Notes under the pieces: model-generated
Told to the model about the DNA's origin: nothing
The model's database searches: none
Seen by the model: the letters and a program-made list of their open reading frames with translations, nothing else
Program-made: the position numbers and the translations under genes
Assembly: GCA_964518135.1 (NCBI GenBank)
Contig: CAZFEY010000004.1
Coordinates: 1-33,389 of the forward strand
From: an uncultured Candidatus Saccharibacteria bacterium
GTDB lineage: Bacteria; Patescibacteriota; Minisyncoccia; Minisyncoccales; 2-12-FULL-40-12
Reading direction: 5' to 3'
Length of the DNA: 33,389 nucleotides
In this document: in pieces, positions 1 through 19,737 of the stretch
Numbering within the stretch: the first letter of the stretch is position 1
How the letters are laid out: every line of letters begins with the position of its first letter

Positions 1-1064
1 GTAAGCTGAACATCCGCTGTGCCAAACTTCGCCGATTCAAAGAGAAGAGAAATTATTTGTGTTTTTAAAGTAAAAAAAAGGAAGCTTAAAGGAATAACCA
101 AAAAAACAATATGGCGAAACGCCAAAGAAAATTGCTTCAAAAAAACCGTTTTATCTTCATCGAAAAAACTTAAAGACAACGCAGGAAAAACGGCTGACGT
201 AAGCGGAATAGCGACAATCCCTATCAATATGGCAATAATGTTATTGGCAAGAGTGAAAATAGCTATACTGCCCGCTGCCAACGTCGAAGCTATTGCTGTT
301 ATAACTATTAAATTAATTTGTGAAGCAGCTAGCCCTAAAGACCTGGGAAGCATTAATTTGATAACTTTTACAACTCCTTGATGAAAAAAGTTAAAGACTG
401 GTTTATATTTAAAACCAGCGTGAAAAAAAACTGGCAGCTGAATAATCAGATGAATAGCAGCTCCTAAAACAACCCCCCAAGCCAAGCCAGAAACGCCCAT
501 TAGCGGCACTAGGAATAAAATTCCTAAAATAATTCCGATATTATAGAAAATAGGAGCCAATGAAGTAACTAAAAAGCGCTGAAAAACCTGTAAAACTCCA
601 GAAATGACATTACTCACCCCCAAGATAATGGGACTTAAAAACATTATCCTAGTCAATAGTATAGCCACCTCTCTTTTTTCGCCATCGAATCCTGGCGCAA
701 TCAGCGAAATCAACAATGGAGCTATGATTGCCAAAGAAGCAGCGACTATGATTAGAACGACAAGGCAGATATTTAAAAACGCAGAAAGAAAATCCCATGC
801 TTCTTCTTTTGAGCGCGATAAATACTGGGTAAAAACAGGGATAATGGCGGCCGATATAGCCCCCATTATCAAAACTAAAGCGATAAAATCCGGAATCTTA
901 AAGGCGGCGTAATATACATCCAATTCGTCCCCTGCTCCAAATTGGCGCGCCAAAAGCAAATCGCGCGCCAATCCCAACAAAGCGCTAATTAAACTAGCTA
1001 CTCCCAAAATAAAAGCGGCGAAATTAACGCTTTTTGTTTCCGTGTTTAAAATTTTGTGGATCAT
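1..1064 (-). CDS. murJ: Lipid II flippase MurJ/MviN (3' end runs off the window)
   Basis: Not in the ORF track. Manual translation from ATG at 1064 gives MIHKILNTETKSVNFAAFILGVASLISALLGLARDLLLARQFGAGDELDVYYAAFKIPDF, the typical MviN N-terminus, followed by hydrophobic helices. Confidence 0.93.
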   Translation of the reverse strand, partial: MIHKILNTETKSVNFAAFILGVASLISALLGLARDLLLARQFGAGDELDVYYAAFKIPDFIALVLIMGAISAAIIPVFTQYLSRSKEEAWDFLSAFLNICLVVLIIVAASLAIIAPLLISLIAPGFDGEKREVAILLTRIMFLSPIILGVSNVISGVLQVFQRFLVTSLAPIFYNIGIILGILFLVPLMGVSGLAWGVVLGAAIHLIIQLPVFFHAGFKYKPVFNFFHQGVVKVIKLMLPRSLGLAASQINLIVITAIASTLAAGSIAIFTLANNIIAILIGIVAIPLTSAVFPALSLSFFDEDKTVFLKQFSLAFRHIVFLVIPLSFLFFTLKTQIISLLFESAKFGTADVQL

Positions 1065-1133
1065 TTGATATCGTACAATCATTTTAATCCGACGACCATC
1101 TTTTTACAAGATGGAGCTTTTCAGCCAAATAGG

Positions 1134-1162
1134 TTGACAGAAAAAATATAATATGCTAGGGT
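1134..1162 (+). promoter_or_regulatory. sigma70-type promoter for the 162-aa ORF
   Basis: TTGACA (1134-1139), 17 nt spacer, TAGGGT (1157-1162) with extended TGn; strong SD AAAGGAGG before ATG 1261. Confidence 0.55.
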
Positions 1163-1260
1163 TTAATTATCGAACATTAAAAATCCTGCTGGTAGTTGAC
1201 GGCTATCCGTAGGTTAATATAGACTTTTTAACCGATATTCTTAAGAAAGGAGGAAGTGCA

Positions 1261-1749
1261 ATGATAGACTTTTTGTCTCTATCGCTCATCTTTGCTTCTT
1301 ACTGGGCGGCGGTCATCATCGAAAAATCTATTAGGCGTTGGGACATCAGTAAAGACCTCAATGTGCCACTAATCTTTTTAGCGGTCATGCTTCTTGTTCT
1401 AGCTGTACATATTGCGACAGATTCCCTACCTACAGCGTACGAAAAAAGCATCCAAGGACAGCCGCTCTCGACGCCGCCAGTGCCTGGTGATTATTCGATT
1501 GTCAGTGCCGAGGAAAAAGACGGGTTCTGGTATATTGTTACAGATATCAATGACGCGACAAAACTTGGGTCGAGCAAGGTTTCTCCTTCTGTTCGTTTCT
1601 ACGAATTGCCGGCCGAATCGGTTCAGATAGCACAGGAACCATCCAGAGTCCCACTGCTTGTCGTTCATGGAGATGGCAAGATCAAATTATATCTTCCAAA
1701 AGGCACTTCGCCTAGCCCAGTAGGAACTCCAGTAGTTATTACAAATTAA
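1261..1749 (+). CDS. Hypothetical membrane-anchored protein (two N-terminal TM helices plus soluble domain)
   Basis: 162-aa ORF with AAAGGAGG SD, its own promoter and terminator; no recognisable family. Confidence 0.75.
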   Translation: MIDFLSLSLIFASYWAAVIIEKSIRRWDISKDLNVPLIFLAVMLLVLAVHIATDSLPTAYEKSIQGQPLSTPPVPGDYSIVSAEEKDGFWYIVTDINDATKLGSSKVSPSVRFYELPAESVQIAQEPSRVPLLVVHGDGKIKLYLPKGTSPSPVGTPVVITN

Positions 1750-1768
1750 TCTCCGTCTAATTTCGCCC

Positions 1769-1791
1769 AAAAGCCTCGTCGAGGCTTTTTT
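1769..1791 (+). terminator. Intrinsic terminator
   Basis: AAAAGCCTC-GTC-GAGGCTTTTTT directly after the 1749 stop. Confidence 0.75.
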
Positions 1792-1811
1792 CTTTTACGT
1801 AAAGGAATTGA

Positions 1812-1888
1812 CCCGGTAGTGAATTTTGGACTCGCTTTGTGAATAGATCCACTTTAGATAGCGAGATCTTCCAAAATCTACTACCGGG
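1812..1888. mobile_element. MITE-like element, CCCGGTAG family, copy 1
   Basis: Ends CCCGGTAGTGAATTTTGGA / TCCAAAATCTACTACCGGG; flanked by TTGA (1808-1811) and TTGA (1889-1892). Confidence 0.8.
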
Positions 1889-1917
1889 TTGACAAACCAA
1901 CTTCTTTACCATATAAT
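1889..1917 (+). promoter_or_regulatory. Consensus sigma70 promoter of rnpB
   Basis: TTGACA (1889-1894), 17 nt, TATAAT (1912-1917), 6 nt before the RNase P RNA 5' end. Confidence 0.85.
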
Positions 1918-1923
1918 CTTATT

Positions 1924-2312
1924 GTCTTGGCAAGCTGGGGGGTTGCTGAGCATATAAGAAATTATGTGCTTGGAGGAAAGTCCGAACATTCATTTCGTTC
2001 ATAAGATCTAAAACGCTCCGGGTAACGCCCGGCCGCTGAAAGGCGAGGGGTGCGAACAGTGACGCCCTAGATACCGAAAGGTATCGGGCGCCCGTCCATC
2101 GCAAGATGGAATAGGGCGAATCTGAAGAGAAATCTTCGGAGTGAAACGGCTAAATCCCTGCGGAATGCAAGAATAACCCAAAAAGTTGCAAGCATGTAAT
2201 TTTTTGGTGAAAAGTAGTTCGCTAGATCCTAAGGGTAACCGAGGGACCAGATAGATAATCGTCGCCCCGCCAATGGCGGGGTACAGAATTCGGCTTATAG
2301 GCTCGCCAAGAC
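1924..2312 (+). ncRNA. rnpB: RNase P RNA
   Basis: Conserved GAGGAAAGTCC and ACAGAATTCGGCTTA motifs; terminal helix GTCTTGGC.../...GCCAAGAC; flanked by promoter and terminator. Confidence 0.96.
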
Positions 2313-2315
2313 ATT

Positions 2316-2343
2316 AAAAACCCGCCCATTTGGGCGGATTTTT
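2316..2343. terminator. Bidirectional terminator between rnpB and rnhA
   Basis: AAAAA-CCCGCCCA-TT-TGGGCGGA-TTTTT hairpin between convergent genes. Confidence 0.75.
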
Positions 2344-2362
2344 AATTTATCTATTAATCTGA

Positions 2363-2806
2363 TTAAAACAATGGATGAGTAATTTTATGACTATCCAATG
2401 CTTCGTTGGCTAACTTATCAGCATCTGTGTTTTTATTGCGAGAAATAAGCTTAAATTTGATTTTTTTGAAATCCAGCCTAAGATTCCATACCTGAATAAA
2501 CAATTGCTGGATTTTTGGTTCAAGAATTTTATACTCTCCATTGAGCTGCTTAACCAACAATTCCGAATCAGATCTTAATTCAATCTCTGTTGATTGAGCA
2601 AGCTTTTTGCCAAACAGGGCTTTAAATTTTTTCATAGCGAAGATTACCGCCTCGTATTCAGCTTCATTATTTGTGAGATTGTTTCCAAAATACTCTGCAT
2701 ACTTTTTAATAATCTCTCCCTTCTCATTGCAAAAAACTATTCCCCCACCGGCAGACCCTGGATTCCCCCTTGATCCACCATCTGTATAAATAATAATTTT
2801 TTTCAC
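2363..2806 (-). CDS. rnhA: Ribonuclease HI family protein
   Basis: YTDGGSRGNPG, TNNEAEY, SDSELLVKQ and N.xAD.LANEALD motifs; the GTG start overlaps the end of the adjacent repeat. Confidence 0.92.
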   Translation of the reverse strand: MKKIIIYTDGGSRGNPGSAGGGIVFCNEKGEIIKKYAEYFGNNLTNNEAEYEAVIFAMKKFKALFGKKLAQSTEIELRSDSELLVKQLNGEYKILEPKIQQLFIQVWNLRLDFKKIKFKLISRNKNTDADKLANEALDSHKITHPLF

Positions 2807-2929
2807 CCCGTTAGAAATCTGTCTTATATAACACTACGTTATTTTCGAACAGACCATTATTTTTAATTTAATCCCCGCTATTATAAGACAGAAAAAATAT
2901 ATTTTTTCTGCTCAAGACTTCTAACGGGG
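2806..2929. mobile_element. MITE-like element, CCCCGTTAG family, copy A
   Basis: CCCCGTTAGAA...TTCTAACGGGG termini, internal hairpins (TCTGTCTTATA/TATAAGACAGA), flanks TTCA/CTCA. Confidence 0.8.
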
Positions 2930-2930
2930 C

Positions 2931-4094
2931 TCATATTTTCGCGAAATACTTAGCAAGACAAACTTTAAATTTTTCCAAGTTTCCTACTTCGATCGAGAAA
3001 CCGGCTGCGGCTGGATGCCCGCCAAAAGTTTTCAATAATTTTTTACAACTGGTCATTGCTTTTACCGCATCTACTCCTTTGGGCATCCTTACGGCTCCAG
3101 CACCCAAACCTTCTTTTTTGTTAAAATCTTTTTGCACTAAAAACGTAGGCTTTTTATATTTTCCGCAAATCCTTGAAGCAACAGATCCTAATAAAGAATA
3201 TTGCCATTTGTTTTTCGACTCAAAAATAATCGGATCTTTTATATTTTTAATAACAAGTCTTTCAACCTCATTAGTAATCTCTTTGACCCTCTTTTGTCGT
3301 TGAATTTTTTGCTTAATTAGACTTTTAGCCAAAGACGTTATGGTCTTTTTACTATCTGATACCAATAAAGAATATATGGCATTTATGTGATTTTTTGCAT
3401 CGCCCGAATTAAGAATAGCGACTATTTTCTGGGCAACTTCTCTTGGTGGCGCAGATTTTAGGCTTTTATCCAATTCAAAAAAGATTTTCAAACTAGGCCT
3501 TGTTGGTGTTTTTAATCCCTGTAAACCCTTTTCGATTATATCTTGATTGTCGTCAGTCTGAATCATCATATCGGCTATTGTCGCCAAAGCTGCAATTTCA
3601 AAAAAATTCCTTTCTTTAATGATTGAGGAATTCTCTCCCAATAACTCAAAAACAAGCTTAAGCGCTAATCCTCCGGCAGCCAATTCCTTAAATCGATACC
3701 TGTCTCCCGGTTGCTTTGGGTCTACTATTATATGGGCCGTTGGCAGTTTGCCCAAAATAATATGATGATCAATAATTATGATCTCAAAGCCCAATTTTCT
3801 GGCAAGCTTTATTTCCTGAAAATTACCAATACCGCAATCTAGCAAAATCAAGAGGGCGGGAGCTTTTGACTTAAGATTATTCACTGCCTGCTCGTTTAAA
3901 CCATGTCTTTCTTTATTCCTGTCTGGAAAATAAACAGCGTCTACCCTACCTCCCAAGGATTCTATACTTTCTTTTGTGATAACGGTGGCTGAAGCTCCAT
4001 CCAAGTCTGAATCTCCGTATAAAATTATCTTCTCGTTGTTTTTAATTGCCCTTTTTATCCTTAGGGCGGCTTTTTTAAGATTTTTTATCGGCAT
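2931..4094 (-). CDS. recJ: RecJ-like single-stranded DNA exonuclease (DHH/DHHA1), short form
   Basis: YGDSDLDG, LLDCG, IIDHH, ATIADM and FGGHPAAAGF motifs; ends without the C-terminal OB region of long RecJ proteins. Confidence 0.82.
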   Translation of the reverse strand: MPIKNLKKAALRIKRAIKNNEKIILYGDSDLDGASATVITKESIESLGGRVDAVYFPDRNKERHGLNEQAVNNLKSKAPALLILLDCGIGNFQEIKLARKLGFEIIIIDHHIILGKLPTAHIIVDPKQPGDRYRFKELAAGGLALKLVFELLGENSSIIKERNFFEIAALATIADMMIQTDDNQDIIEKGLQGLKTPTRPSLKIFFELDKSLKSAPPREVAQKIVAILNSGDAKNHINAIYSLLVSDSKKTITSLAKSLIKQKIQRQKRVKEITNEVERLVIKNIKDPIIFESKNKWQYSLLGSVASRICGKYKKPTFLVQKDFNKKEGLGAGAVRMPKGVDAVKAMTSCKKLLKTFGGHPAAAGFSIEVGNLEKFKVCLAKYFAKI

Positions 4095-4214
4095 AATTTT
4101 TCAATTCAAGATTATATACACATTACATATTAACGAATCTTCTCAATTCAAAATATATATTTATACACTAGCGAATCTTGTAATTTTACTATAAAGTATT
4201 GCAAAAATACAACA

Positions 4215-4246
4215 AAAAACCGTATTCCTTTAAAAAATACGGGTTT
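4215..4246 (-). terminator. Probable terminator after pgk
   Basis: AAAAAACCGTATT...AATACGGGTTT inverted repeat with a U-tract on the minus strand. Confidence 0.55.
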
Positions 4247-4261
4247 AATCATAAGAAATAT

Positions 4262-5428
4262 TTATTTATCAATAGCCTTAATCCCAGGCAAATTTTCACC
4301 AGACAAAAAATCCAGCATTGCTCCACCGCCGGTAGAAACATGATCAAACTTATCAACTAGCCCAAATTTAGAAATCGCATCTATTGTTTCGCCCCCTCCT
4401 ACAACTTTGAAAGCGGATTGATTCCTCGTAATAGCTTGGGCTATTTCCCTCGTTCCCCGTTCAAATCTTTTATCTTCAGATAATCCCATAGGGCCGTTCC
4501 AAACAATCATTTTTGCTTGCCCAATAATTTCTTTAAAAATCTTCACCGTTTCCGAACCTATATCCAGTACCGATTCTTCTTTTTTCGCCGTACCAATTGC
4601 TCCTTGGCGCACCGCATCTTTTTCCTTTTCCAAAACAATAGTGCCATCAACCGGCAAATGAATTTTAGGGTCAGTTAGATTTATTTTACCAATAGCAGCT
4701 AAAACATTTTCTTTTGGCAGAGGAAAACCAACCATTATGTCCTTGCCTATTAAAATAGTATTAGCTATGGCTCCGCCGATTAGTACATGGTCGGCTATTT
4801 TTAAAAATCTTTCAATCATTTTAACCTTGGTTTCAATTTTAACGCCGCCGACTATCACAACTAACGGATGCCAAGGATTTTCTAAAACATTTGAAAGCAC
4901 TTTAATCTCTTTTGCCAAAAGAAATCCGCTACCAGAAGGCAGATATTTTGGAATACCCACTACTGACGCATGACTTCTATGGCACACGCCAAAAGCATCA
5001 TTTATATAAATATCTCCTAATTGAGATAACTTTTGGGCAAATTCCTCATCGCTTGCCTCTTCTTCTTTATAAAATCTGATATTCTCCAACAACAACACTT
5101 CGCCTTCTTTCATTTTTTCAATTTCGCCCTCAACTCTTTCACCCAAACACTCGTTGGTTTTTGAAACCTCGACACTCAAACAAGAGGATAAACATTTTGC
5201 AATATTATTTAAACGCAGGTTTTCTACAACTTTACCGTCCGGATCTCCAAGATGAGTTATTATAATTACTCTCGCCTTGTTTTTGATCAAATACTCAATC
5301 GTAGGAACTGCTTGCTTTATTCTAAAATCATTCAGAATTTCACCATCATCAGCCAAAGGAACATTAAAATCACACCTTAGTAAAACTTTTTTGCCTCGAT
5401 ATTCAAAATCTTCCAGATTTTTTATCAT
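4262..5428 (-). CDS. pgk: Phosphoglycerate kinase
   Basis: RCDFNVP, LLENIRF, NDAFG, WNGPMG and HVSTGGGA motifs. Confidence 0.97.
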   Translation of the reverse strand: MIKNLEDFEYRGKKVLLRCDFNVPLADDGEILNDFRIKQAVPTIEYLIKNKARVIIITHLGDPDGKVVENLRLNNIAKCLSSCLSVEVSKTNECLGERVEGEIEKMKEGEVLLLENIRFYKEEEASDEEFAQKLSQLGDIYINDAFGVCHRSHASVVGIPKYLPSGSGFLLAKEIKVLSNVLENPWHPLVVIVGGVKIETKVKMIERFLKIADHVLIGGAIANTILIGKDIMVGFPLPKENVLAAIGKINLTDPKIHLPVDGTIVLEKEKDAVRQGAIGTAKKEESVLDIGSETVKIFKEIIGQAKMIVWNGPMGLSEDKRFERGTREIAQAITRNQSAFKVVGGGETIDAISKFGLVDKFDHVSTGGGAMLDFLSGENLPGIKAIDK

Positions 5429-5431
5429 AAA

Positions 5432-7102
5432 CTATTCCTTTTTGTCTGAACCAATATTGCCAAGCGTTTCATCTAGTAACTGTTTTAATTCTTGAACATT
5501 CACGTTCGGCTGTTTTTTTTCTTTTTCTTTCGGCAAAAAACGCGGTATAGACGCTTCAACATTTTTTCTAGAGGAAAAAGCAGAAGATTCCCTATTGATT
5601 GTTTCCGCTAAAGACATTGGCGCTGAATCTTGCTTGCTTTCCCGCTCCGCGTCTTGTTTTTTAATAAACTTATTCCTGCAAGATTTGCAGTATACCGGCT
5701 TTCTACCGTCGGGCTGAAAAACGACTTTCGTCCATTTACCACATGAAGAACATTTAGCATCGTAAAGAGTCGGACCGGCTGACGGCAATGGACCTTGCAA
5801 CGGAGTGCTTGATTCCGAAAGCCATCTGCTAATCTTTTCTTCTACGGCTTTAATCGGCGTTCCATATCTCTCGCGAGAAACATTAATAATTTTATCCCTG
5901 TTGGATTCTTCAAGCGGGGCTATGGGCGGCAGAGTTTGAGCCGAGAAAGGCTTGCCCGCTATACCATCAATCATCAATTTTAAAAAGATGCTGTATTTTC
6001 CTAAATCCACAATATCCGTAGCCATAACCTGGGGCATAAATTCTTTTTCCAAAAACTCTGCATCTTCAGCGCCAACCCGAAAAGTAATTAAAGTGCCCAC
6101 ATTTCCAAAAACAGCATCTCCAACTTCTTCTTCCATCTGCGCTATGTATTGATGCCCCAAAATTAAACAAAGGCGATACTTTCTTGCTTCAGACAAAATA
6201 TTGATAAAACTTCTTGTGGCGAAGTTTTGAAATTCATCAACGTATAAGAAGAAATCTTTTCTATCATCTTCGGGAATATCTACTCTGGACATTGCGGCCA
6301 ATTGCAATTTCGTAATCAAAAGGGCTCCCAATAACAAAGAATTATCTTCTCCAATTCTTCCTTTCGACAAATTAAGAATAAGAATTTTCCCTTGATCCAT
6401 CGCGTCTCTCATATTAATACTCGATCTTGTTTGCCCGATAATATTTCTAACTAAAGGCGCTGAAATAAACTGTCCCACCTTGTTCTGGATAGCGGCCGTA
6501 GCTTCTGTCTCGTATCGCTGGGAATAACGCGCGAATTCTGTTGTCCAGAAAGCTTTAACTACCGGATCTGTTATTCTTTCAACTACTTTTTTTCTATATT
6601 CAGGATCCCCTAACATTCTATTCACACCCAAAAGCGTAGAACCCGGATATTCTAAGAGAGCCAGTATAGAATTATTTAAAATATATTCCATACGGGGCGA
6701 CCAAACATCGGGCCAGATTTTTTTAAAAACGCCCATAAGACCTGAAGCCACTAAATGCCTATGTGCCGGATCTACTTTTTCCATTACATTAAAGGCAATC
6801 GGGCATTCTAGATCGGCCGGGTTGAAATAAATAACATCGTTAACCCTGCTGGATGGAATAAAATCAAGTAATTTTTCTGCCGCCTCTCCATGCGGATCAA
6901 CAAAACCGACACCGCGACCAGCCTGAATATCTTGCACCACCATATTTTCCAACATAGCGGTCTTTCCCATACCGGTCTTTCCAACAATATAAACATGTCT
7001 TCTCCTGTCATCAGTTTTAATGCCAAACTTACGTCTCTGATTCCGAAACGTTGTTATTCCAAAAAAATTTATATCGTTATTCTCGTCCATTTTTTCGTCC
7101 AT
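5432..7102 (-). CDS. VirD4/TrwB/HerA-like P-loop ATPase with C-terminal CxxC-x17-CxxC zinc ribbon
   Basis: Walker A GKTGMGKT, DPHGE, Walker B LYVDEFQNF, SEARKY; C-terminal CSSCGKWTKVVFQPDGRKPVYCKSC. Confidence 0.85.
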   Translation of the reverse strand: MDEKMDENNDINFFGITTFRNQRRKFGIKTDDRRRHVYIVGKTGMGKTAMLENMVVQDIQAGRGVGFVDPHGEAAEKLLDFIPSSRVNDVIYFNPADLECPIAFNVMEKVDPAHRHLVASGLMGVFKKIWPDVWSPRMEYILNNSILALLEYPGSTLLGVNRMLGDPEYRKKVVERITDPVVKAFWTTEFARYSQRYETEATAAIQNKVGQFISAPLVRNIIGQTRSSINMRDAMDQGKILILNLSKGRIGEDNSLLLGALLITKLQLAAMSRVDIPEDDRKDFFLYVDEFQNFATRSFINILSEARKYRLCLILGHQYIAQMEEEVGDAVFGNVGTLITFRVGAEDAEFLEKEFMPQVMATDIVDLGKYSIFLKLMIDGIAGKPFSAQTLPPIAPLEESNRDKIINVSRERYGTPIKAVEEKISRWLSESSTPLQGPLPSAGPTLYDAKCSSCGKWTKVVFQPDGRKPVYCKSCRNKFIKKQDAERESKQDSAPMSLAETINRESSAFSSRKNVEASIPRFLPKEKEKKQPNVNVQELKQLLDETLGNIGSDKKE

Positions 7103-7138
7103 TTTCTAAAAATTATTTGTTTCAACGATTCACTGCGT

Positions 7139-8449
7139 TTATTCTATTGGCAATCCGCTAGGAGCTTCTCTTTTTCTTGTTTCAACTCTTTCAACCGAAG
7201 ACGTTGGAGCAACGCCCGCACTCGGGAAATGATACAGGGTGGCTAATTCTTCCGTGTTTAAAATATATGTTCCTCCCGGGCGCGGAAAAAAAGGGGTCCA
7301 TCTACCTCGATAATACCTGATTAATTTTCTCTTCTTGAGGAAAGTTAATCTTTTATCCAAAAACCAAAGCCAAATTTCTTTTGACTTTGTCATTGTTATT
7401 TTCATTGGTTTTAAACCTCCTAAGTTTTCACTAGAAGTCGCTTTGAAAAAACCGTAGATAGCGCGCGACCTCGGCTTGAAAAAAGCGTCTTTTGTGCCAA
7501 GATATATTGTTCTAACGTGACAGCTGTAAGCAAACTTCGAAATCTTTTGCTCGATCGCCTGTACTATTTCTCTTTCTCCAGGGGTCAATTTCATTTCCGG
7601 AGGAATAACATCTTTCTCCGCCTCTTTCATCGCCGTTGGCTTCCCAGTCACAACTACCTGTACCGCTTCCGTAATCATTGGTGGGGGTGGCGGTGGGGCT
7701 TCTGGCCTTCTAACCAATCTATCTCTTTCCTTTATAGCTTCTTTGATCCAAGGAGTATCGCTCTCTCGAATGGGCCTACAAATAATTTGCAACCATGCCT
7801 GTTCGCCAGGATTTAAAGTCGCCAAGGCCTCTAATAATCCAGACAAAGGATCTACCATCTTTCCCTCCGTTCTCTCTGCTTCGTTTTCAAATGCAAGGTA
7901 TGTTTTTAATGGATATCCTGAATTCTTAGTATATTCCCAGCTCATTCCAAATAGATCCCAATCCCTATTTGGGATATCCATAGGCACTTGCTTTGTATAA
8001 TCTTCTACCTGTATAATTTCTACCTCTGGATACTGAGAATAAATATTGGACTCAATAACATCACGGAAAATTTCTGGCAGCCGAATAAAAAAATGAATTT
8101 TTCCATCAATGCTGGCTATTTCTAAAGAAATACTAAGCTGAAATTGCCCCTCTATGTATTTTTCCCGCCATACCGTAACGTCGTGTATGGCATGAAATCC
8201 AGCAAGAACATAATCCATTGCCTTTATGGGCTTTTCAATAATCTCTGGTAGTTTTATTTCTAGAATAATTTTCTTAACAGTAGAATCCCATACAACATTT
8301 CTCCAAAAGATATATTGATATTTAAAAGTTCCCCAAAGTAAAAATGGCGGGAAGACCCACCACCAAACCTCAAAAACTTTCCAGAATTCATTCAAGAATG
8401 GCAAAACTGGAGATATTAAGCTCAAAAATTCTGGCGGGAAAAAAGACAT
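7139..8449 (-). CDS. Conserved hypothetical membrane-anchored protein, partner of the adjacent ATPase
   Basis: 436 aa with aromatic N-terminal TM segment, SLEIAS, IYSQYP and LNTEELATLYHFP motifs; start overlaps the upstream stop (TAATG). Confidence 0.78.
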   Translation of the reverse strand: MSFFPPEFLSLISPVLPFLNEFWKVFEVWWWVFPPFLLWGTFKYQYIFWRNVVWDSTVKKIILEIKLPEIIEKPIKAMDYVLAGFHAIHDVTVWREKYIEGQFQLSISLEIASIDGKIHFFIRLPEIFRDVIESNIYSQYPEVEIIQVEDYTKQVPMDIPNRDWDLFGMSWEYTKNSGYPLKTYLAFENEAERTEGKMVDPLSGLLEALATLNPGEQAWLQIICRPIRESDTPWIKEAIKERDRLVRRPEAPPPPPPMITEAVQVVVTGKPTAMKEAEKDVIPPEMKLTPGEREIVQAIEQKISKFAYSCHVRTIYLGTKDAFFKPRSRAIYGFFKATSSENLGGLKPMKITMTKSKEIWLWFLDKRLTFLKKRKLIRYYRGRWTPFFPRPGGTYILNTEELATLYHFPSAGVAPTSSVERVETRKREAPSGLPIE

Positions 8450-9453
8450 TATATTGATCTCACCCCTTTGACGAAGCTATATTTCCCCTCCTGATTTCTT
8501 AAAAAGAATTTTTTATTGTTTAAATTAATAAGGATGGTATTCTCCTTCACAATCCTTTGTTTCGATACCTCTGCAACTATTTCTTGGGGAGTAAGGGGCT
8601 TTTGTGATTTCTTAAGAATATTCATTATAACATCTTTCACTACCCCGGGCATATACCCCATTTCTTTCAAAGCATAAAGACCCCTGCCAACCAATACAAA
8701 CCTTGCATCCCTAATTAGCTCATTGTGAACGCTTTGAATATTGGCGCTGTCTCCAATTAGCCTTGCCACCTCCTGAAAATGCAAAGGCCTTTGTTCTTTC
8801 TTGAAAGCCAGATAAGCCCTATCTTTAATCCCTCTTGGATTAATCTCTGGCCATTCCTTTAGCCCCCAAAGATTCTCCTGATTACTTTGGATATTCTTTG
8901 ATACTTCTAAGTAAGATTGTAAATGCTCGGTTTTCAAATTTTTACCGAAATCTTTCTTCACAGAAGTATCCTGCAAAGAAATTGGTTTCTTGTTTTTGTT
9001 TAAGAATTTATAAAAAGCGCTTACGGTTTTTTTCAAACCATCCATTGGCTTTTGCTCTGTGGTCCAAAAAGTATGGAAATCGTCTGATTCAGTAAATCTA
9101 GCAAAGGGTTTTCCCAGGGTTAGCAAAAAGAAAACTTGGTTTTGGTTATCTCCATCTCCAAGAATACCGAGCAAGATAGATTCTTTTTTTAGCCCGCCGT
9201 GGGAACGAATCTCTCTTTCAAAACCATCAAAAACCGATTGATATTTTTGCACCCCATCATCAATCTTTGACATTGCGACTTCTTGAATCTGACGGACTCT
9301 TTCTCTGGTAATACCATGGTCTTGCCCGATCGCATCTAGGGTTTCCCTATGTAATCCATCCAAGCCAAAACGCCTGACAATAACTTCTTTGCCCTTGTCA
9401 GGTAAATTCTTAATTAAATCCGAACAAATAGTTTGAAAATTTATTTTAGCCAT
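8449..9453 (-). CDS. Sigma-70 region-4 HTH fused to C-terminal winged-HTH (HARE-HTH / RNAP delta-like) domains
   Basis: RRFGL...ETLDAIGQDHGITRERVRQIQ at the N-terminus; KDRAYLAFKKEQRPLHFQEVA and KDVIMNILKKSQKPLTPQEI at the C-terminus. Start taken at MAKINF (9453) rather than 9498. Confidence 0.8.
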   Translation of the reverse strand: MAKINFQTICSDLIKNLPDKGKEVIVRRFGLDGLHRETLDAIGQDHGITRERVRQIQEVAMSKIDDGVQKYQSVFDGFEREIRSHGGLKKESILLGILGDGDNQNQVFFLLTLGKPFARFTESDDFHTFWTTEQKPMDGLKKTVSAFYKFLNKNKKPISLQDTSVKKDFGKNLKTEHLQSYLEVSKNIQSNQENLWGLKEWPEINPRGIKDRAYLAFKKEQRPLHFQEVARLIGDSANIQSVHNELIRDARFVLVGRGLYALKEMGYMPGVVKDVIMNILKKSQKPLTPQEIVAEVSKQRIVKENTILINLNNKKFFLRNQEGKYSFVKGVRSI

Positions 9454-9525
9454 AATACTTTTTTCTATAATATACTCATTTATACTCGTTAAACGCATTT
9501 AAGCATTTTATAAAGGAGTTGTCAA

Positions 9526-9639
9526 CCCCGTTAGAAGCCATCTGTGGAAATATGTTGATTTAAAGACAATAGCCGTTATGGCGGCTGAACGCCTTATGTC
9601 CTTTGTGTGCGCAACAGCTATCGCGGGATTCTAACGGGG
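9526..9639. mobile_element. MITE-like element, CCCCGTTAG family, copy B
   Basis: CCCCGTTAGAA...TTCTAACGGGG with exact TCAA duplication (9522-9525 and 9640-9643). Confidence 0.82.
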
Positions 9640-9643
9640 TCAA

Positions 9644-9705
9644 CCCCGTTAGAAGCCATCTGTGGAAATTTGTTTACCAAGCATAGAAGTCGCAAGGCGA
9701 CTCCG
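9644..9705. repeat. Truncated tandem copy C of the CCCCGTTAG element
   Basis: First 26 bp (CCCCGTTAGAAGCCATCTGTGGAAAT) identical to copy B; no right end before the secF stop; hairpin AGTCGC-AAG-GCGACT at 9688-9702. Confidence 0.7.
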
Positions 9706-9711
9706 CCCCAA

Positions 9712-10602
9712 CTACTTTCTTTTTCCCTCTTTGCTGTTCACCCAACTAAAAATCAAAGGACTGGCAATAAAGATAGACGAATAAGCACCTGAAACAATTC
9801 CTATGATTAGCGCCAAGGAAAAGTATTTTAAGCTTTCTCCGCCGAAAAAATAAATAGCGAATAGAACGAGAAGGGTTGTTAGGACGGTATTAATCGAGCG
9901 AACTAATGTCTGATTTAAGCTTTGATTGACAACGTCTCCAAAAGATACAGCTGTTCTTTTCAATAAATTTTCGCGAATACGATCAAAAACAACAATAGTA
10001 TCATGCACGGAAAAACCGAGAACTGTTAACAGGGCAGCAACGAAAGGAATGTTAATTTCTACATTGTAAAATTCCCCCAAGATCGCAAAAACTCCAAGAG
10101 GAATGATAATATCGTGGAAAAGAGCCACCAAAGTAGCCAAACCGTATTGCCAAGATTTAGCAGGATAAGAAACTCTTCTAAACGCGAAAGCAACATAAGA
10201 AGCTATCGCCAACAAAGCAAGGATAGTTGCCGTTCTTGTTTTACCTGTTAATTCTTTTCCAATCGTTGGCCCAATTGCCTCAAAGCTTTGCTCGGTTTCA
10301 CCTTCTATTTTTTTTAATATCTCCTGATGAGTTGATTCTTCAATATGCCCAAATCTTAAGATCAGTCTATTCTCACCAGCTGGCTGAATAATAATTTCTA
10401 CCAAATTAAGATCGGCCAAGCTACTTTCTATAGACTCATTGGACGGAACTTGGCCGTCAAATACTAATTCCATTATACTGCCGCCGGTAAAATCAATGCC
10501 CATCTTTAAACCAAAAACTAAAACGAGCGCCAAACTTGAAACAATCAAAACGCCAGAGAGAATATAATAGAGTGTTCGATATTTTAGAAAGTTTATATTC
10601 AT
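9712..10602 (-). CDS. secF: Protein translocase subunit SecF
   Basis: GIDFTGG, IGPTIGKEL, GFSVHDTIVVFDRIREN and GAYSSIFIASP motifs. Confidence 0.97.
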   Translation of the reverse strand: MNINFLKYRTLYYILSGVLIVSSLALVLVFGLKMGIDFTGGSIMELVFDGQVPSNESIESSLADLNLVEIIIQPAGENRLILRFGHIEESTHQEILKKIEGETEQSFEAIGPTIGKELTGKTRTATILALLAIASYVAFAFRRVSYPAKSWQYGLATLVALFHDIIIPLGVFAILGEFYNVEINIPFVAALLTVLGFSVHDTIVVFDRIRENLLKRTAVSFGDVVNQSLNQTLVRSINTVLTTLLVLFAIYFFGGESLKYFSLALIIGIVSGAYSSIFIASPLIFSWVNSKEGKRK

Positions 10603-10629
10603 AATTTTACCTCCAAAGCCATTTTAACT

Positions 10630-12024
10630 TTATTGCCAAAGCCATTTACTTTTTTCAATTTTGCTACCATCAAATAGTTTTAGAAAATATCTTGTAATAA
10701 AAACTGCCGAAAACATACTAATTAAAACTCCGATTATCAAAGTAAAAGCGAAACCCTTAACGAACCCCGTTCCAAAACCAAATAAAATCAATGAAGTAAT
10801 AATCGTTGTAATATTGCTATCTCGGATTGACGGCCAAGCGCGAGAAAAACCTTCCGCGAGAGAAATAGTGAAATTCTTTCCTTCAGCGAATTCCTCTTTC
10901 ATTCTGGCAAAAATAAGAATATTAGCATCAACCGCCATACCGATAGATAAAACGAAACCGGCTATACCTGCCAATGTTAAAGTAACAGGAATGAGCTTGA
11001 ATAAAGCAAGAATAATAGCAATATAAATAATCAGCGCTAAAGAAGCTAGGATACCAGGCAGGCGGTAAAAGATTACCATAAACATTATCACCGCTAGAAA
11101 TCCTATAAATCCAGACTTCAATGATTTCTCTAGGGAAATTTTACCCAAAACTGGACCAACGGATTCTTGAGAGATAAGAGTAATTGGCAATGGCAAAGCT
11201 CCCGCATTAAGATTTCTGGCCAGCTCTTGAGCTGATTTAATATCGAAATTACCTGTAATTTGCGCTTTACCGCCAACGATTTTGCTTTGTACTACTGGAG
11301 CCGAGATCAAAACTCCGTCTATATAAATAGCTATGGGCTTGCCAATGTTATTTTGGGTCAATTCTTCAAAAAGCTTCGATCCTTCGTCGTTGAATTCAAT
11401 CGAAATTAAGGGCTTTGGGGCATTTTGTTCGAAACCTATTTCTGCTTTTTTGAGATATCTCCCGGTCAACGAAGTGGATTTAAAATAAGGATCCTCAAGT
11501 GCCGATTCCCAATTCTCTATCTTCTGCGCTTCTTCAGGTGTTTTTCCCTCAAGCTCTTTGGCCTTATCTAGGATTTTTTGAGATTCTTCTTGGGATTTTT
11601 GCTCTTTAAATTCTAAAAATGGAGTCTGCCCTATTTGTTTTACAGCTTCAGCAGGATCAATCACGCCAGCTAATTCAACTATCAATCTGTATTTATCTCC
11701 GGCATTTTGCACTTGCACTAAAGGCTCTGCAACGCCAAAAAAGTTTACCCTTCTTTCAATGATATCTCTTAATCCTTCCATTGCTTGTCCTCTTTCTTTT
11801 TCTGCAATTTGCGACAAATCCGCCTCGTATAATAGATGAGAACCACCCTGCAAATCCAAACCTAATTTAAAAGGCACATTCCAGAAGTGCGGAACCTGCC
11901 AGTTAAATTTAGCATTTAAGAAGTCTACTGATTTGTTGAAGTAATTTGGATAGCTAAAATTCCCGACAAAAAATGCCAGGACTAAAATAAAAAAGACTAT
12001 TGTATAAACTCTTTGCTTCTGCAT
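10630..12024 (-). CDS. secD: Protein translocase subunit SecD
   Basis: LGLDLQGG, GVAEP, LNAGALP, IGMAVDANILIF and DSNITT motifs. Confidence 0.97.
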   Translation of the reverse strand: MQKQRVYTIVFFILVLAFFVGNFSYPNYFNKSVDFLNAKFNWQVPHFWNVPFKLGLDLQGGSHLLYEADLSQIAEKERGQAMEGLRDIIERRVNFFGVAEPLVQVQNAGDKYRLIVELAGVIDPAEAVKQIGQTPFLEFKEQKSQEESQKILDKAKELEGKTPEEAQKIENWESALEDPYFKSTSLTGRYLKKAEIGFEQNAPKPLISIEFNDEGSKLFEELTQNNIGKPIAIYIDGVLISAPVVQSKIVGGKAQITGNFDIKSAQELARNLNAGALPLPITLISQESVGPVLGKISLEKSLKSGFIGFLAVIMFMVIFYRLPGILASLALIIYIAIILALFKLIPVTLTLAGIAGFVLSIGMAVDANILIFARMKEEFAEGKNFTISLAEGFSRAWPSIRDSNITTIITSLILFGFGTGFVKGFAFTLIIGVLISMFSAVFITRYFLKLFDGSKIEKSKWLWQ

Positions 12025-12049
12025 TTTTTAAAAATTTTGACGATAAACA

Positions 12050-12078
12050 ATCATACAACAAAAAAAATAATAAATCCA
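12050..12078 (-). promoter_or_regulatory. Probable promoter of secD-secF
   Basis: TGGATT (12078-12073), 17 nt, TATGAT (12055-12050). Confidence 0.5.
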
Positions 12079-12162
12079 CCCGGGTAGTAGATTTTGGACA
12101 GCCCCGCCACTAAAAGCGGCGGGTTTCTGACGCGTGGCGCCGGTCCAAAATTCACTACCGGG
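12079..12162. mobile_element. MITE-like element, CCCGGTAG family, copy 2 (inverted relative to copy 1)
   Basis: CCCGGGTAGTAGATTTTGGAC...GTCCAAAATTCACTACCGGG with exact TCCA duplication (12075-12078 and 12163-12166). Confidence 0.8.
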
Positions 12163-12288
12163 TCCACCCTACCAATAACCACTATAGTACAAAATACACA
12201 CCTGCATATTTTGTACTATAGATTGATAGAAGTAAAAGAAATAAAAAAGACCGCCTTGTGGCAGTCCGAATTTTTGATTGACAATAAA

Positions 12289-12543
12289 TCATCCTCCGCT
12301 TCTTTTGAATCCCGATCGAAGACTGATCAATCCCAGTACGACAAGGATATATGCAAATATCATGATAACTTTTGCATACCATGCATATTTGATACCCATG
12401 TCTGCTCCGTACAAATCAACATAGATCGATTTTGACGGAATAACTAGGAAGTCCTGAATGATCCATCCCGGCGGAAGAGACAGAATGATTATTATCATCA
12501 GGCCCAGCAAAGCAATCATAGTTCCAAAAACTTGTACTTTCAT
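12289..12543 (-). CDS. Small hypothetical two-TM membrane protein
   Basis: 84 aa with two hydrophobic segments, GGAGG SD, dedicated promoter and downstream hairpin (12243-12275). Confidence 0.7.
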   Translation of the reverse strand: MKVQVFGTMIALLGLMIIIILSLPPGWIIQDFLVIPSKSIYVDLYGADMGIKYAWYAKVIMIFAYILVVLGLISLRSGFKRSGG

Positions 12544-12572
12544 AGCGAGCCTCCATTGTTTGTGCTATTTAC

Positions 12573-12601
12573 AGTATAACAAATAATACCAATCCTGTCA
12601 A
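12573..12601 (-). promoter_or_regulatory. sigma70 promoter for the 84-aa ORF
   Basis: TTGACA (12601-12596), 17 nt ending TGT, TATACT (12578-12573). Confidence 0.7.
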
Positions 12602-12622
12602 GCACTCCTATTTCAAAACTTG

Positions 12623-13165
12623 TTATATTTTTTCTATTTCAAATAACGCTATGCCAAAAACATAGAATCTTTCTAGTCTGCTAGATTTTATCTTAAATGT
12701 GCCAGATAACATCTGGCTTAATTTTTGGAAGCTTCTTATTTTCGCTCCTTTATCTATATAGAAAAAAGGATAAGCTAGAAAATTAAGAGATGGCGGCAAA
12801 ACAATATCCACTATCCAAATATGACCTTTATTTTTCGTAACGCGTAATATTTCTTTTAGCGCCACTAGAAGATCTCCGTCTTCTAAATGATGCAATACAG
12901 CAACAGAAAACACAAAATCAAAAGAGCTATCTAGTAAATCGATCTTTGTCATATCCATAATTTCAAATCGGGAATTATTATATTTTTTCCGGGCATAATT
13001 TATCGCTTTTGTATCTATGTCTATGCCAAGGTAATTATTATTTTTAAAAATATCTGAATATTGTCCCTGCCCGCAACCAACATCTAAAACATCTCCGCCC
13101 TGGAAATGTATTGATTCTAAATATTGCTTTAATTTTCTTTCGTAAATTCTTCTAAATCCTAGCAT
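12623..13165 (-). CDS. Class I SAM-dependent methyltransferase
   Basis: VLDVGCGQG, GIDID and SFDFVFSVAVLHHL motifs. Confidence 0.9.
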   Translation of the reverse strand: MLGFRRIYERKLKQYLESIHFQGGDVLDVGCGQGQYSDIFKNNNYLGIDIDTKAINYARKKYNNSRFEIMDMTKIDLLDSSFDFVFSVAVLHHLEDGDLLVALKEILRVTKNKGHIWIVDIVLPPSLNFLAYPFFYIDKGAKIRSFQKLSQMLSGTFKIKSSRLERFYVFGIALFEIEKI

Positions 13166-13212
13166 GGTTTAAATTACAATAATGAAGATTTAATAAAATT
13201 TATTGATACGCC

Positions 13213-13653
13213 CTACCACCCAAACTCGCAATAATTTGTTTTCTTCGAAAAATAACTTATTGCTTCCCGAATATATAAAACAGTGTTTTCTGGTAATTGA
13301 TTTAGAGGAAACCATGAAAAATCATCACATTTTTCTGGCTCCATATTTTTTAATTCGCCTTCCCAGTTTTTTACGACAAAAAATAAATCGATTCGTTCAT
13401 GATCTCCACACTGTCGGTGCATGGTTAAAACAAGATCTAAATCATTTTTATCAATCTCAACTCCCACCTCTTCATACATCTCTCTGGCCAAAGCGTCTCT
13501 CATCGTCTCTCCACCATCCACATGCCCAGATGGCAAACCATAATTACCGTCTTCGTATCCTGTCTGATACCTCCGAGATAATAAAATTTTTCCTTCCTTG
13601 ACAAAAAGAGCGTAAACAGACGGAATGAGCTTAAACCTTTCTATGTTTGCCAT
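13213..13653 (-). CDS. NUDIX hydrolase
   Basis: Nudix box GHVDGGETMRDALAREMYEEVG; NMEPEKCD motif. Confidence 0.92.
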   Translation of the reverse strand: MANIERFKLIPSVYALFVKEGKILLSRRYQTGYEDGNYGLPSGHVDGGETMRDALAREMYEEVGVEIDKNDLDLVLTMHRQCGDHERIDLFFVVKNWEGELKNMEPEKCDDFSWFPLNQLPENTVLYIREAISYFSKKTNYCEFGW

Positions 13654-13714
13654 AATGCTTTTTCTTTCCTGTCCAAAGGATATACCTTATTTTAAATTCT
13701 TTAAACAAAAATGC

Positions 13715-17234: not shown

Positions 17235-17381
17235 ATTTAAATTTTGTTCAAAAAACTCATATTAAAATTTTAATTCAAAATTTCATTCTTAAATTTTGTT
17301 CAGCAAACTCATAATCAGTATTTTACTCTTTTGAGCATAAAAAGAAAGAGACGCATTTGCGCCCTTCCTCCATCTATCTTC

Positions 17382-17423: not shown

Positions 17424-17425
17424 CC

Positions 17426-19045: not shown

Positions 19046-19088
19046 ACTAATAAATCCATTATAACAAAAATTGTGTCAATGGGTAATA

Positions 19089-19709: not shown

Positions 19710-19737
19710 GATTTTATTGTCTTAGTATAATACATTC

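Follow-up and report, generated by a model that had tools for sequence, protein, structure and literature searches.

Promoter-abutting MITE-like repeats in Patescibacteria share their termini with a minimal element whose sole gene encodes a GIY-YIG nuclease

Introduction

Bacterial MITEs, such as the Correia elements of Neisseria, are about 70-150 bp long, have TIRs and short TSDs and lie adjacent to promoters; the Correia elements duplicate TA and supply promoters of their own. The combination of TIRs and TSDs is the classical anatomy of DDE transposons, and the transposase classes known from prokaryotes are DDE, DEDD, HUH, serine, tyrosine and Cas1. Insertion of the IS200/IS605 type produces no duplication and uses a single target in one orientation. 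The GIY-YIG homing endonucleases, among them I-TevI and the T4 Seg proteins, are about 250 aa in length with a C-terminal DNA-binding domain; their genes reach a single cognate site through homologous repair and lack TIRs and TSDs. Slx1 partners Slx4 in DNA repair and has no known tie to repeats, and we know of no TIRs around UPF0213 genes. Finally, several transposons occupy safe harbours: Tn7 inserts at attTn7, group IIC introns at terminators and Ty3 at Pol III start sites.

As far as the entries 6seh and 7cq4 describe it, Slx1 cuts branched and stem-loop DNA, an activity that fits a hairpin or cruciform element as substrate. IS elements that target REPs are reported (PMC1525189), as are GIY-YIG insertions in the rRNA genes of Patescibacteria that are not introns (PMC11270868).

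The repeats described here resemble Correia-type MITEs in being short and non-coding with a TIR and a TSD, in having many intergenic copies by promoters and in being capable of forming hairpins. Unlike Correia elements, they land on an existing -35 and duplicate its first four bases, and the protein encoded by their sole coding relatives is a GIY-YIG nuclease, not a DDE transposase. These relatives are like GIY-YIG homing genes in that a selfish unit has a GIY-YIG nuclease as its only gene, but they differ in the size of the protein (82-96 aa), in their TIRs and TSDs, in their many unrelated sites and in having MITE-like derivatives. As with the safe-harbour transposons, a recurrent genomic punctuation mark is occupied with minimal damage; here, however, the marks are the 5' edge of a sigma-70-type -35 or, for the long forms, start codons, and the duplication rebuilds the mark. 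The conserved ends and variable hairpin centre also recall integron attC sites, a comparison that was considered and dropped: those have conserved R and L boxes and lie in cassette arrays next to an integrase, and the present elements are single, dispersed and flanked by TSDs. Searches of the open-access literature found no prokaryotic element with a -35-edge or start-codon habit, and neither TIR/TSD-bounded GIY-YIG elements nor -35-specific MITEs (PMC12455944, PMC11270868, PMC11602168 and PMC13285730 included). Elements of about 310 bp, bounded by TIRs and with a GIY-YIG gene as their sole gene, are thus a kind of mobile element that was not found described.

Results

The window, by which is meant the whole stretch of 33,389 nucleotides that was analysed, contains three copies of the repeat (Table 1), 77-84 bp long and with shared asymmetric ends as an earlier note on this DNA had claimed. 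The ends, CCCGGTAGTGAATTTT and AAAATCTACTACCGGG, form an imperfect inverted repeat in which GA versus AG at positions 10-11 is the constant difference between them; copy 2 has one additional G (CCCGGGTAG). With three or fewer mismatches allowed, the terminus motif has six matches in the window, compared with a mean of 0.29 in shuffled sequences, none of 100 of which reached six. The exact 4-bp duplications noted at two of the copies (TTGA and TCCA) are present, and the third copy has CAA only.

Each copy adjoins a -35 hexamer with a correctly spaced -10, and this part of the earlier reading held at rnpB, at secD and at the third copy. At secD the TGGA of the -35 is the reverse complement of the TCCA TSD at 12075-12078. 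The third promoter likewise stood, while the "6S-like" label given to it has its sole basis in an Rfam match below threshold (E 2.8e-5 in a search of 801 bp). A terminator was called by the tool only in copy 3; as a general role it was rejected because the other copies, by eye, have no consistent T-tract or orientation. A tRNA-like origin was also considered, ARAGORN having called a tRNA-Leu(taa) at C2:47374-47460, and this was treated as a false positive, there being no Rfam tRNA at that position.

Table 1. Repeat copies, target duplications and neighbouring promoters and genes in the window
Feature	Position	Strand	Remarks
Copy 1, 77 bp	1812-1888	+	GTGAA end left; single long hairpin, RNA MFE -35.4 kcal/mol
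TTGA TSD of copy 1	1808-1811 (left); 1889-1892 (right, identical)	+	
rnpB -35, TTGACA	1889-1894	+	Bases 1-4 form the right TSD of copy 1
rnpB -10, TATAAT	1912-1917	+	17-bp spacer
RNase P RNA (rnpB), class A	1927-2313	+	Rfam RF00010, 108 bits, gathering score 100
secD gene	10630-12024	-	Downstream of promoter 2; ATG at 12024; SecDF_P1_head, SecD_1st, SecD_SecF_C
secD promoter (promoter 2)	12050-12078	-	TGGATT (12078-12073), 17 bp, TATGAT (12055-12050)
TCCA TSD of copy 2	12075-12078; 12163-12166		
Copy 2, 84 bp	12079-12162	-	Reverse orientation; MFE -46.7
6S RNA match, sub-threshold	23708-23847	-	3' of promoter 3; RF00013, 34.8 bits vs gathering score 46.4
Promoter 3	23938-23967	-	TTGACT (23967-23962), 18 bp, TAAAAT (23943-23938); TG precedes -10
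Duplication of copy 3, CAA only (3 bp)	23965-67; 24047-49		TCAA vs CAAG
Copy 3, 79 bp	23968-24046	+	MFE -39.9
Terminator-like hairpin with T5	24003-24023	-	Within copy 3; faces upstream minus-strand gene 24064-25170

The genome to which the window belongs (G000, a Patescibacteria MAG of 758 kb) is about 89% coding according to the crude ORF calls on which all gene assignments here are based. It contains 10 dispersed short copies of 66-84 bp, all non-coding and TIR-bounded; of the first 20 positions of their arms, 15-18 agree. Eight of them have an exact TSD of 4 bp (TTGA and TCAA three times each, TGGA and TCCA once each, in both orientations) and the other two have one of 3 bp. In all 10 the TSD is the start of a -35-like hexamer followed at 16-18 bp by a TA-type -10, and the end of the element that faces the promoter can be either one (6 vs 4). 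By -10 criteria that were set only after the data had been inspected, a TAnnnT -10 accompanies 9 of the 10 short copies; for intergenic T[TG]GA sites the figure is 230 of 1551 (14.8%; P 3e-7), and the difference persists (P 4e-4) against the narrower background of intergenic T[TG]GAC sites, where 102 of 302 (34%) have such a -10. The targets of the short subfamily in this genome are T(T/G)GA, usually TTGAC, and often have GG on the 5' side: GG directly precedes the TSD in 5 of the 10 copies compared with 4.7% of sites (P 5e-5), and GGG does so in 4 of the 10 compared with 1.6%. The GG-TTGA target resembles the element's own ...CCGGG/TSD junction.

The element family is found in Patescibacteria and is common in the order of the host, the terminus pattern giving 102 matches in 17 of the order's 41 genomes while the reversed-pattern control gave 6. 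A clean empty site, TTTTTGTCAACAAAACAGGC, is seen in a genome of the same genus (G001), its counterpart in G000 being TCAA-element-TCAA. Two more empty sites in G001 lie at C3:17828 and upstream of secD, where the element-free sequence TGTATT...TTGTATAAT aligns with the secD promoter of G000. Three further relatives (G002, G003 and G004) have TTGACA-17-TAnnnT, without an element, starting 38 nt before rnpB. Because element-free relatives have promoters with the same spacing, the TSD is the opening four bases of a -35 that was there before the insertion, and the promoter survives because the duplication regenerates the -35 hexamer beside its -10. The earlier proposal on both points is supported, and the empty sites that it suggested looking for in relatives were found in G001 with the promoters already in place. 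The TSDs, these empty sites and the nested insertions present in relatives also bear out the claim that the repeat is a non-autonomous mobile element; being short, TIR-bounded and non-coding, with a TSD, empty orthologous sites and multiple dispersed copies, it is MITE-like. Logan contigs of X1, X3 and X5 over positions 1-20000 of the window have the rnpB site filled in each case, and among the joints listed none skips copy 1 or copy 2, although contigs cannot reveal rare alleles.

A different TIR family (CCCCGTTAGA...) occupies the same TCAA/-35 in G001, where three of its four short copies, together with a variant on C13 of G000, abut TTGACA- or TTGATT-type promoters. In G001, four members of the CCCGGTAG family lack a 4-bp TSD: three are without any duplication of at least 3 bp, and one has AAA.

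It could be argued that promoters are actively targeted, such that the machinery reads promoter DNA (bent, occupied by sigma or RNA polymerase, or as a composite -35/-10 signal) and integrates at the upstream edge of the -35, not simply at any TTGA-like site. The association in G000 covers all 10 copies and stays significant even against intergenic T[TG]GAC sites; -35 adjacency is seen in three TIR families, two unrelated ones sharing the same -35 in G000 and G001, and insertions into non-promoter intergenic TTGA sites, which should be no more harmful, do not occur in G000. In other genomes, however, a promoter-like arrangement is seen at no more than 7 of 18 TTG-type copies, compared with 3 of 18 for the control flank. 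This count leaves out elements with a TSD below 3 bp and includes one nested copy (L129:1528), and it does not differ from the 34% base rate of T[TG]GAC sites (P 0.41). The promoter enrichment that the earlier note proposed to measure is thus significant in G000 and not in the other genomes. Further, the excess of GG and GGG before the TSD suggests that a simple sequence is recognised, sister elements pick start codons instead, and a nuclease of 94 aa would have no known means of sensing polymerase occupancy. Active targeting of promoters is, on balance, unlikely.

As claimed, there is no transposase in the window. The candidate autonomous partners, with the same termini as the short copies, are long elements encoding a GIY-YIG nuclease with a putative transposase role. 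Three such elements of 308-323 bp are present in G000, with the termini of the short copies and a sole ORF for a GIY-YIG nuclease of about 90 aa, which is intact in one (94 aa, C20:6512-6793 on the minus strand, Pfam GIY-YIG E 4e-16), an intact variant in another and broken in the third. Full-length elements are approximately 303-390 bp and consist of two TIRs of about 20 bp, CCNNGTAGTGAA... and ...TCTACTACNNGG, which here too always differ by GA versus AG, enclosing one ORF. A single protein query from C20, which reaches close relatives only, gave 80 related loci in many diverse Patescibacteria lineages. At 64 of these the GIY-YIG ORF is bounded by these TIRs with nothing else inside (median unit 314 bp); the remaining 16, in which the TIR regex found no pair, were left out, and some of them have variant cores by another scan.

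A TSD of at least 3 bp (3-6 bp) flanks 50 of the 64 long elements and 14 have none of that length. Their targets are mostly TATG, ATGA or TGAA, with the host genes in the same orientation, and in 38 of the 64 the right edge carries an ATG that begins an ORF of at least 50 aa on the same strand and is exactly the start codon of the downstream gene. Only 8 of these 38 have an SD-like motif upstream of their left end. Taking all elements together, the insertion sites are T-rich and mostly contain TG, and the TSD is mostly 4 bp. With respect to the GA and AG ends, the ORF reads in one direction in 36 elements and in the other in 25, which would be odd if the asymmetry set the left and right ends for the protein. 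Among five other paralogs of the nuclease in G000, bracketing inverted repeats of their own are clear in three, weak in one and missing in one. PF01541 is matched by six of six paralogs (E 2e-14 to 3e-16), and Y, Y-x-G, R, H and E, which are residues of the catalytic type, are invariant in six.

Searches of Pfam with the 82-96-aa proteins gave no DNA-binding or unrelated domain; the only other matches, T5orf172, MUG113 and DUF1363, cover the same stretch. The closest solved proteins are UPF0213 1zg2 and 1ywl (E 3e-4 to 6e-4). In the structure model (pLDDT 87.7) the fold matches that of Slx1 with a TM of 0.60-0.67 (E 1.5e-3 to 1.3e-2); Foldseek against the PDB gave no match at E <=0.001, the top 11 matches all being to UPF0213, Slx1 or HIGLE with best values of 1.2e-3 to 2e-2. 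I-TevI and UvrC (E 1.5-2.7) are worse structural matches than Slx1, and the NCBIfam model of group I intron endonucleases, TIGR01453, is matched only weakly (E 2e-5 to 4e-4), far below its cut-off. By its nearest sequence and fold similarity, the element ORF appears to belong to the Slx1/UPF0213 branch.

Alternatively, the short and long elements may both be passengers of an unlinked conventional transposase recognising CCNNGTAG termini, with the GIY-YIG gene as cargo or as a nested selfish homing nuclease; such a transposase could sit in unassembled DNA, a plasmid, a phage or a host partner. Eight transposase Pfam families were searched for in five element-rich genomes, and none of these contains a DDE_Tnp_1, DDE_Tnp_4, IS110, TnpB or IS256-type gene (PF01609 and PF13359 are found in 0 of 5; the IS701 (PF13546) and IS1380 models are outside this search) or a DDE transposase gene between element termini, such as would mark the DDE families with a 4-bp TSD (IS5, IS1380, IS701 and Harbinger-like). 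An rve match occurs in G003 only, and IS1595 in G001 only, in a gene that is not flanked by element termini. Moreover, the 64 of 80 diverse loci hold the GIY-YIG ORF alone within their TIRs, and the G000 terminus and core lists, read by eye, show no two termini separated by more than 440 bp, the limit of the pair scan. What the passenger explanation has in its favour is the anatomy of TIRs and TSDs, the tendency of MAGs to lose repeats where contigs end (in run X1, contigs break at copy 2) and the fact that a small GIY-YIG gene was not found in 4 of the 17 terminus-positive genomes (G011, G021, G026 and G029, which are 79-100% complete). We regard it as rather improbable. The earlier note had suggested looking for a transposase between such termini; within the families and genomes covered this yielded no classical transposase, and instead the elements of about 310 bp with a GIY-YIG nuclease as sole ORF.

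The repeats might also be REP/REPIN-like hairpins moved in single-stranded form by a Y1 (HUH, RAYT-like) transposase, as Y1_Tnp is present in four of the five element-rich genomes (G000, G003, G022 and G031) and is the sole transposase type among the eight families in G000 and G031, and as the hairpins are strong with a conserved mismatch, the interiors retaining two hairpins despite sequence turnover (mean z -2.56; 34 of 56 below -2). Mobilisation of the IS200/RAYT kind was rejected on account of the real duplications, which vary in sequence and occur in both orientations, and of the different palindromes (AAGGCTGTCCGACAGCCTT) that flank the Y1_Tnp gene on C62 of G000; G001 (82% complete) has elements and no Y1_Tnp match, and this explanation is very improbable. 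That the element is not mobile at all, and is a conserved regulatory palindrome (operator, insulator or terminator) or a small structured RNA gene upstream of strong promoters, is scarcely credible, for although identity between G000 and G001 is 97-98.5% over 66-bp copies and 69-77% over flanking genes, the terminator-like hairpin of copy 3 faces the upstream gene and the hairpin architecture outlasts sequence turnover, the target bases are duplicated, orthologous sites are empty, copies are nested, either end may face the promoter, no Rfam match to the element reaches the gathering score in the window and five other element-bearing loci, and the same termini bound a protein-coding unit. The mobile element may in addition have been exapted for such a role.

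Discussion

The repeats are probably MITE-like derivatives of a minimal GIY-YIG element, with a preference for T-rich, TG-containing targets and survival where the duplication rebuilds a -35 or an ATG; overall, the interpretation given in the earlier note is supported. The GIY-YIG nuclease encoded by the long copies would act in trans on the short ones, making staggered cuts at the element/TSD junction and at look-alike targets, and host ligation or repair would follow the cleavage. The perfect adjacency to promoters may then reflect a sequence preference in a genome that is about 89% coding, where an insertion would persist only if its duplication recreated a functional motif. To our knowledge GIY-YIG nucleases are hydrolases, and we know of no strand-transfer activity among them.

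A bolder possibility, which we advance tentatively, is that this is a new class of prokaryotic DNA transposon, an autonomous unit of about 310 bp in which an Slx1-like GIY-YIG nuclease of about 90 aa excises and inserts a hairpin element that has evolved to land on genomic punctuation. This length is below that of any insertion sequence known to us. Like a restriction enzyme, the nuclease of such a transposon would cut with a stagger, both at the CCC...GGG/TSD junctions of the element and at similar targets. Long forms would capture the start codon of a host gene and might sometimes be translated from the captured codon, while short forms would land on the 5' edge of a -35, the signal being rebuilt by the duplication; the rebuilt signals would let the elements persist in CPR genomes that are roughly 90% coding.

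Should the GIY-YIG nuclease prove to be what moves these elements, it would represent a further catalytic class of prokaryotic transposase and a minimal autonomous transposon would be defined. It would also account for the many small "GIY-YIG nuclease family" ORFs in Patescibacteria, as well as for the non-intron GIY-YIG insertions in their rRNA genes. As a compact enzyme that cuts with a defined stagger of 4 nt, it could also serve as a useful tool. Even if only a preference for TTGAC and selection are at work, the family would still be a clear natural case of safe-harbour insertion. Insertion at the edge of a -35 or at a start codon is a way for selfish DNA to live in extremely compact genomes, and the choice of site offers a free computational marker of promoters and of true start codons in uncultivated CPR bacteria.

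Short copies and their promoters

The three short copies in the window were found where the earlier note had placed them, and the two 4-bp target-site duplications (TSDs) that it had described for copies 1 and 2 are both exact. Allowing up to 3 mismatches, the 16-base terminus has six matches in the window; shuffled sequences gave a mean of 0.29, and none of 100 reached six. The ends of a copy are imperfect inverted repeats of each other, and positions 10-11 always differ (GA versus AG). The -35 and -10 hexamers claimed to adjoin the copies are present beside all three. For the third, which had been called 6S-like, the promoter pair stands, and the 6S identity has a sub-threshold match only (34.8 bits; gathering score, 46.4), which is full-length and lies some 85 nt 3' of the promoter. 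A terminator-like hairpin was seen in copy 3 only.

In the source genome (G000; 758,684 bp, 67 contigs, 38% GC; the window is its contig C4, and the sequencing runs containing it are labelled groundwater metagenome), 14 elements are complete and carry these termini: ten are short (66-84 bp), three are long (308-323 bp) and one is a variant of 120 bp. In all ten short copies a flank reading T[TG]GA outward is the start of a -35-like hexamer (TTGACA in three copies, TTGACC in two, and TTGACT, TTGAAA, TTGAGT, TGGACA and TGGATT in one each). By criteria set after the copies had been seen, a TA-type -10 with at least 4/6 matches lies 16-18 bp away in 10/10 and TAnnnT in 9/10. When the copies were compared with T[TG]GA sites, as the earlier note had proposed, this adjacency was enriched: TAnnnT stands at that spacing in 14.8% of 1551 intergenic sites outside elements (binomial P 3e-7) and, more strictly, in 33.8% of 302 intergenic T[TG]GAC sites (P 4e-4), where "intergenic" rests on crude ORF calls. 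Either end may face the promoter (6 vs 4), and tRNA-Ser lies downstream of one of the ten promoters.

Every one of the ten forms one long hairpin (RNA MFE -23 to -51 kcal/mol); interiors of short copies vary by subfamily, with two hairpins kept within the terminal stem. The mean folding z-score against dinucleotide shuffles was -2.56, with 34/56 below -2. Copies of 66 bp are 97-98.5% identical (92-98.5% in the L215 comparison) between the source genome and G001, a genome of the same genus, while flanking genes are 69-77% identical, which implies that the element is either constrained along its full length or has recently spread by horizontal transfer.

Coordinates of features in the window and in other contigs (C, contig; L, sampled stretch)
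Location	Feature	Details
Window 1812-1888	Copy 1	TSD TTGA; rnpB promoter TTGACA-17-TATAAT, ending 9 nt 5' of Rfam RNase P match
Window 12079-12162	Copy 2, reverse orientation	TSD TCCA; TGGATT-17-TATGAT, minus strand, upstream of secD
Window 23968-24046	Copy 3	TSD CAA (3 bp); TTGACT-18-TAAAAT, minus strand
Window 23708-23847 (-)	6S RNA match	
Window 1812-1823	Terminus	Example; each terminus has two consecutive in-frame stops (TAG TGA or TAG TAG, depending on the end)
Window 2363-2806 (-)	RNase H / RVT_3-like ORF	Directly 3' of rnpB
Window 12182-12196, 12207-12221	Perfect 15-bp inverted repeat	CTATAGTACAAAATA / TATTTTGTACTATAG; between terminator-like hairpin and copy 2
C1:3230-4759 (minus)	Host ORF	Terminates at TAG within repeat (C1:3230-3237)
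C2:47374-47460	Short copy	Called tRNA-Leu(taa) by ARAGORN; Rfam finds no tRNA; cloverleaf mimicked by two-hairpin interior in long stem
C22:4083-4390	Long element, 308 bp, decayed GIY-YIG	On start codon of murI-like gene beginning MIGIFDSGIGG
G001 C32, L205:14805-14915	Non-coding derivative, ~115 bp	Same murI-like start codon; termini as in C22 element
C1:17278-17502	GIY-YIG ORF, oriented as tRNAs	Between tRNA-Ala and tRNA-Pro; bracketed by 20-nt AT-rich inverted repeat
C7:16416-16637	GIY-YIG ORF, oriented as tRNAs	Between two tRNA-Met
C39:273-527	GIY-YIG ORF, oriented as tRNAs	Just before tRNA-Cys
C62:900-1660	IS200-like/RAYT-like Y1_Tnp ORF, 233 aa	Palindrome AAGGCTGTC(C/G)GACAGCCTT in three copies, which flank the ORF and interrupt its sequence
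L215:2663-2728, 407-468	66-bp copies compared between G000 and G001	

Empty sites and other genomes

The empty alleles that the earlier note had called for exist in G001 at three sites. At C5:33033 it reads TTTTTGTCAACAAAACAGGC where the source genome has TCAA[element]TCAA, and the minus-strand promoter TTGACA-16-TATAAT is kept in both; the others are C3:17828 (AATAAGTTGACCATTT) and the region upstream of secD. For rnpB, inside which the G001 contig begins, the comparison comes from G002, G003 and G004, where TTGACA-17-TAnnnT starts 38 nt upstream, as in the source genome, and no element is present. In G002 and G003 an ORF reaches right up to this promoter. At C2:41436 the same TCAA is occupied in G001 by another kind of element (terminal inverted repeat CCCCGTTAGAGTCC..., 113 bp by motif positions), an independent insertion on the same -35. 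Three of the four short G001 copies of this second family adjoin TTGACA- or TTGATT-type promoters, as does a C13 variant in the source genome. Since relatives have empty sites with promoters, and a second family occupies the same -35, the promoters are older than the insertions and the site type is recurrent.

Across the order, the terminus pattern gave 102 matches in 17/41 genomes (39 in G031 alone), against 6 for the reversed control. In stretches taken from eight of these, 48 complete, non-redundant elements had a TSD of at least 3 bp, nested insertions included; the duplications were TATG/CATA, TTGA/TCAA, TTTG/CAAA, CTTG/CAAG and TTTA/TAAA. Elements lie within elements in L120, L129, L134 and L165 (G031, G038), and in the L129 cases the first interior hairpin holds the inner copy in its loop (CGGCTTTGCCG), which makes the element itself a target. 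Among 18 short TTG-type copies in other genomes, 7 have TAnnnT 16-18 bp from the TTG hexamer (other flank, 3/18). This share is above the base rate of 14.8% (P 0.011) though not above that of T[TG]GAC sites (P 0.41), so the perfect score of the source genome carries over to other genomes only in weaker form.

Long elements encode a GIY-YIG nuclease

In the three long elements of the source genome a small ORF lies between the same termini. The frame is intact in C20 (94 aa, appearing to start at a GTG inside the left repeat) and as a 90-aa variant in C1, and is broken by stops in C22. All three are oriented like neighbouring genes, and the C20 element lies on the TATG of a gene other than that met by C22. 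The six paralogs of the genome all match Pfam GIY-YIG (E 2e-14 to 3e-16), with invariant catalytic-type Y, YxG, R, H and E residues. The closest structures to an AlphaFold model of the nuclease (pLDDT 87.7) are UPF0213 BH0048 and the structure-specific nuclease Slx1 (TM 0.60-0.67); I-TevI and UvrC rank far lower. Bracketing repeats of their own are clear for three of the five other paralogs (C6, CCCCGTTAGAAAC, TSD TATG; C12; C1:17278), weak for one and absent for one.

A scan that took a single genome for each species turned up 308 relatives. Among the best 80, the nearest locus comes from a Candidatus Wildermuthbacteria MAG, the remaining named ones belong to Patescibacteria, and a script placed the ORF between ~20-bp repeats (CCNNGTAGTGAA... 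and ...TCTACTACNNGG) in 64, in units of 303-390 bp (median 314). A TSD of at least 3 bp was present in 50/64 (TATG 18, ATGA 6, TGAA 5, plus others). In 38/64 the right boundary has an ATG from which an ORF of 50 aa or more begins on the same strand, and in 6 units the nuclease ORF shares its reading frame with the left copy of the duplicated ATG.

Mobilisation and site choice

Eight transposase Pfam families were sought in five element-rich genomes. DDE_Tnp_1, DDE_Tnp_4, IS110, TnpB and IS256-type gave zero matches there; rve was found in G003 only, IS1595 in G001 only, and Y1_Tnp in G000, G003, G022 and G031. The Y1 gene of the source genome is a poor candidate for the mover, its flanking palindromes being its own and unlike the element termini; HUH transposition makes no target duplication. 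This gene, on C62, and its palindromes are a separate REP-like system. Of a transposase bounded by the element termini no classical form was found in the five genomes, and what lies between these termini is the GIY-YIG ORF. Because the transposase families are absent or sporadic and Y1 goes with other palindromes, no gene other than the nuclease goes consistently with the termini, and we infer that it mobilises the elements. The small GIY-YIG gene is missing in four of the 17 terminus-positive genomes, its ORF runs in both orientations relative to the GA/AG ends (36 vs 25), and the fold is not known to carry out strand transfer.

Immediately 5' of the TSD, 5/10 copies of the source genome have GG (4.7% background, P 5e-5) and 4/10 have GGG (1.6%), and at most targets the base after the TSD is C. 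This preferred target, (G)GG-TTGA-C, looks like the junctions of the element itself, ...CCGGG|TTGA and TTGA|CCCGG..., which points to sequence recognition by an enzyme that also cuts the element ends. Strong selection must act too, since TTGAC alone is unsafe, 1054/1296 such sites lying inside ORFs. In short copies the duplication restores the -35 beside its -10, so that the promoter sequence survives; in long forms it restores the ATG beside its gene. Alternatively, promoter DNA itself may be recognised by the insertion machinery, as non-promoter intergenic sites go unused in the source genome. Sequence preference together with selection is the reading that we prefer.

Judged by anatomy the elements are MITEs; in coding partner and in site choice they differ from every family that is known to us or that a literature search returned. 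The mechanism of movement is in part deduced; the occurrence of these elements beside promoters is real and more general than was first stated.
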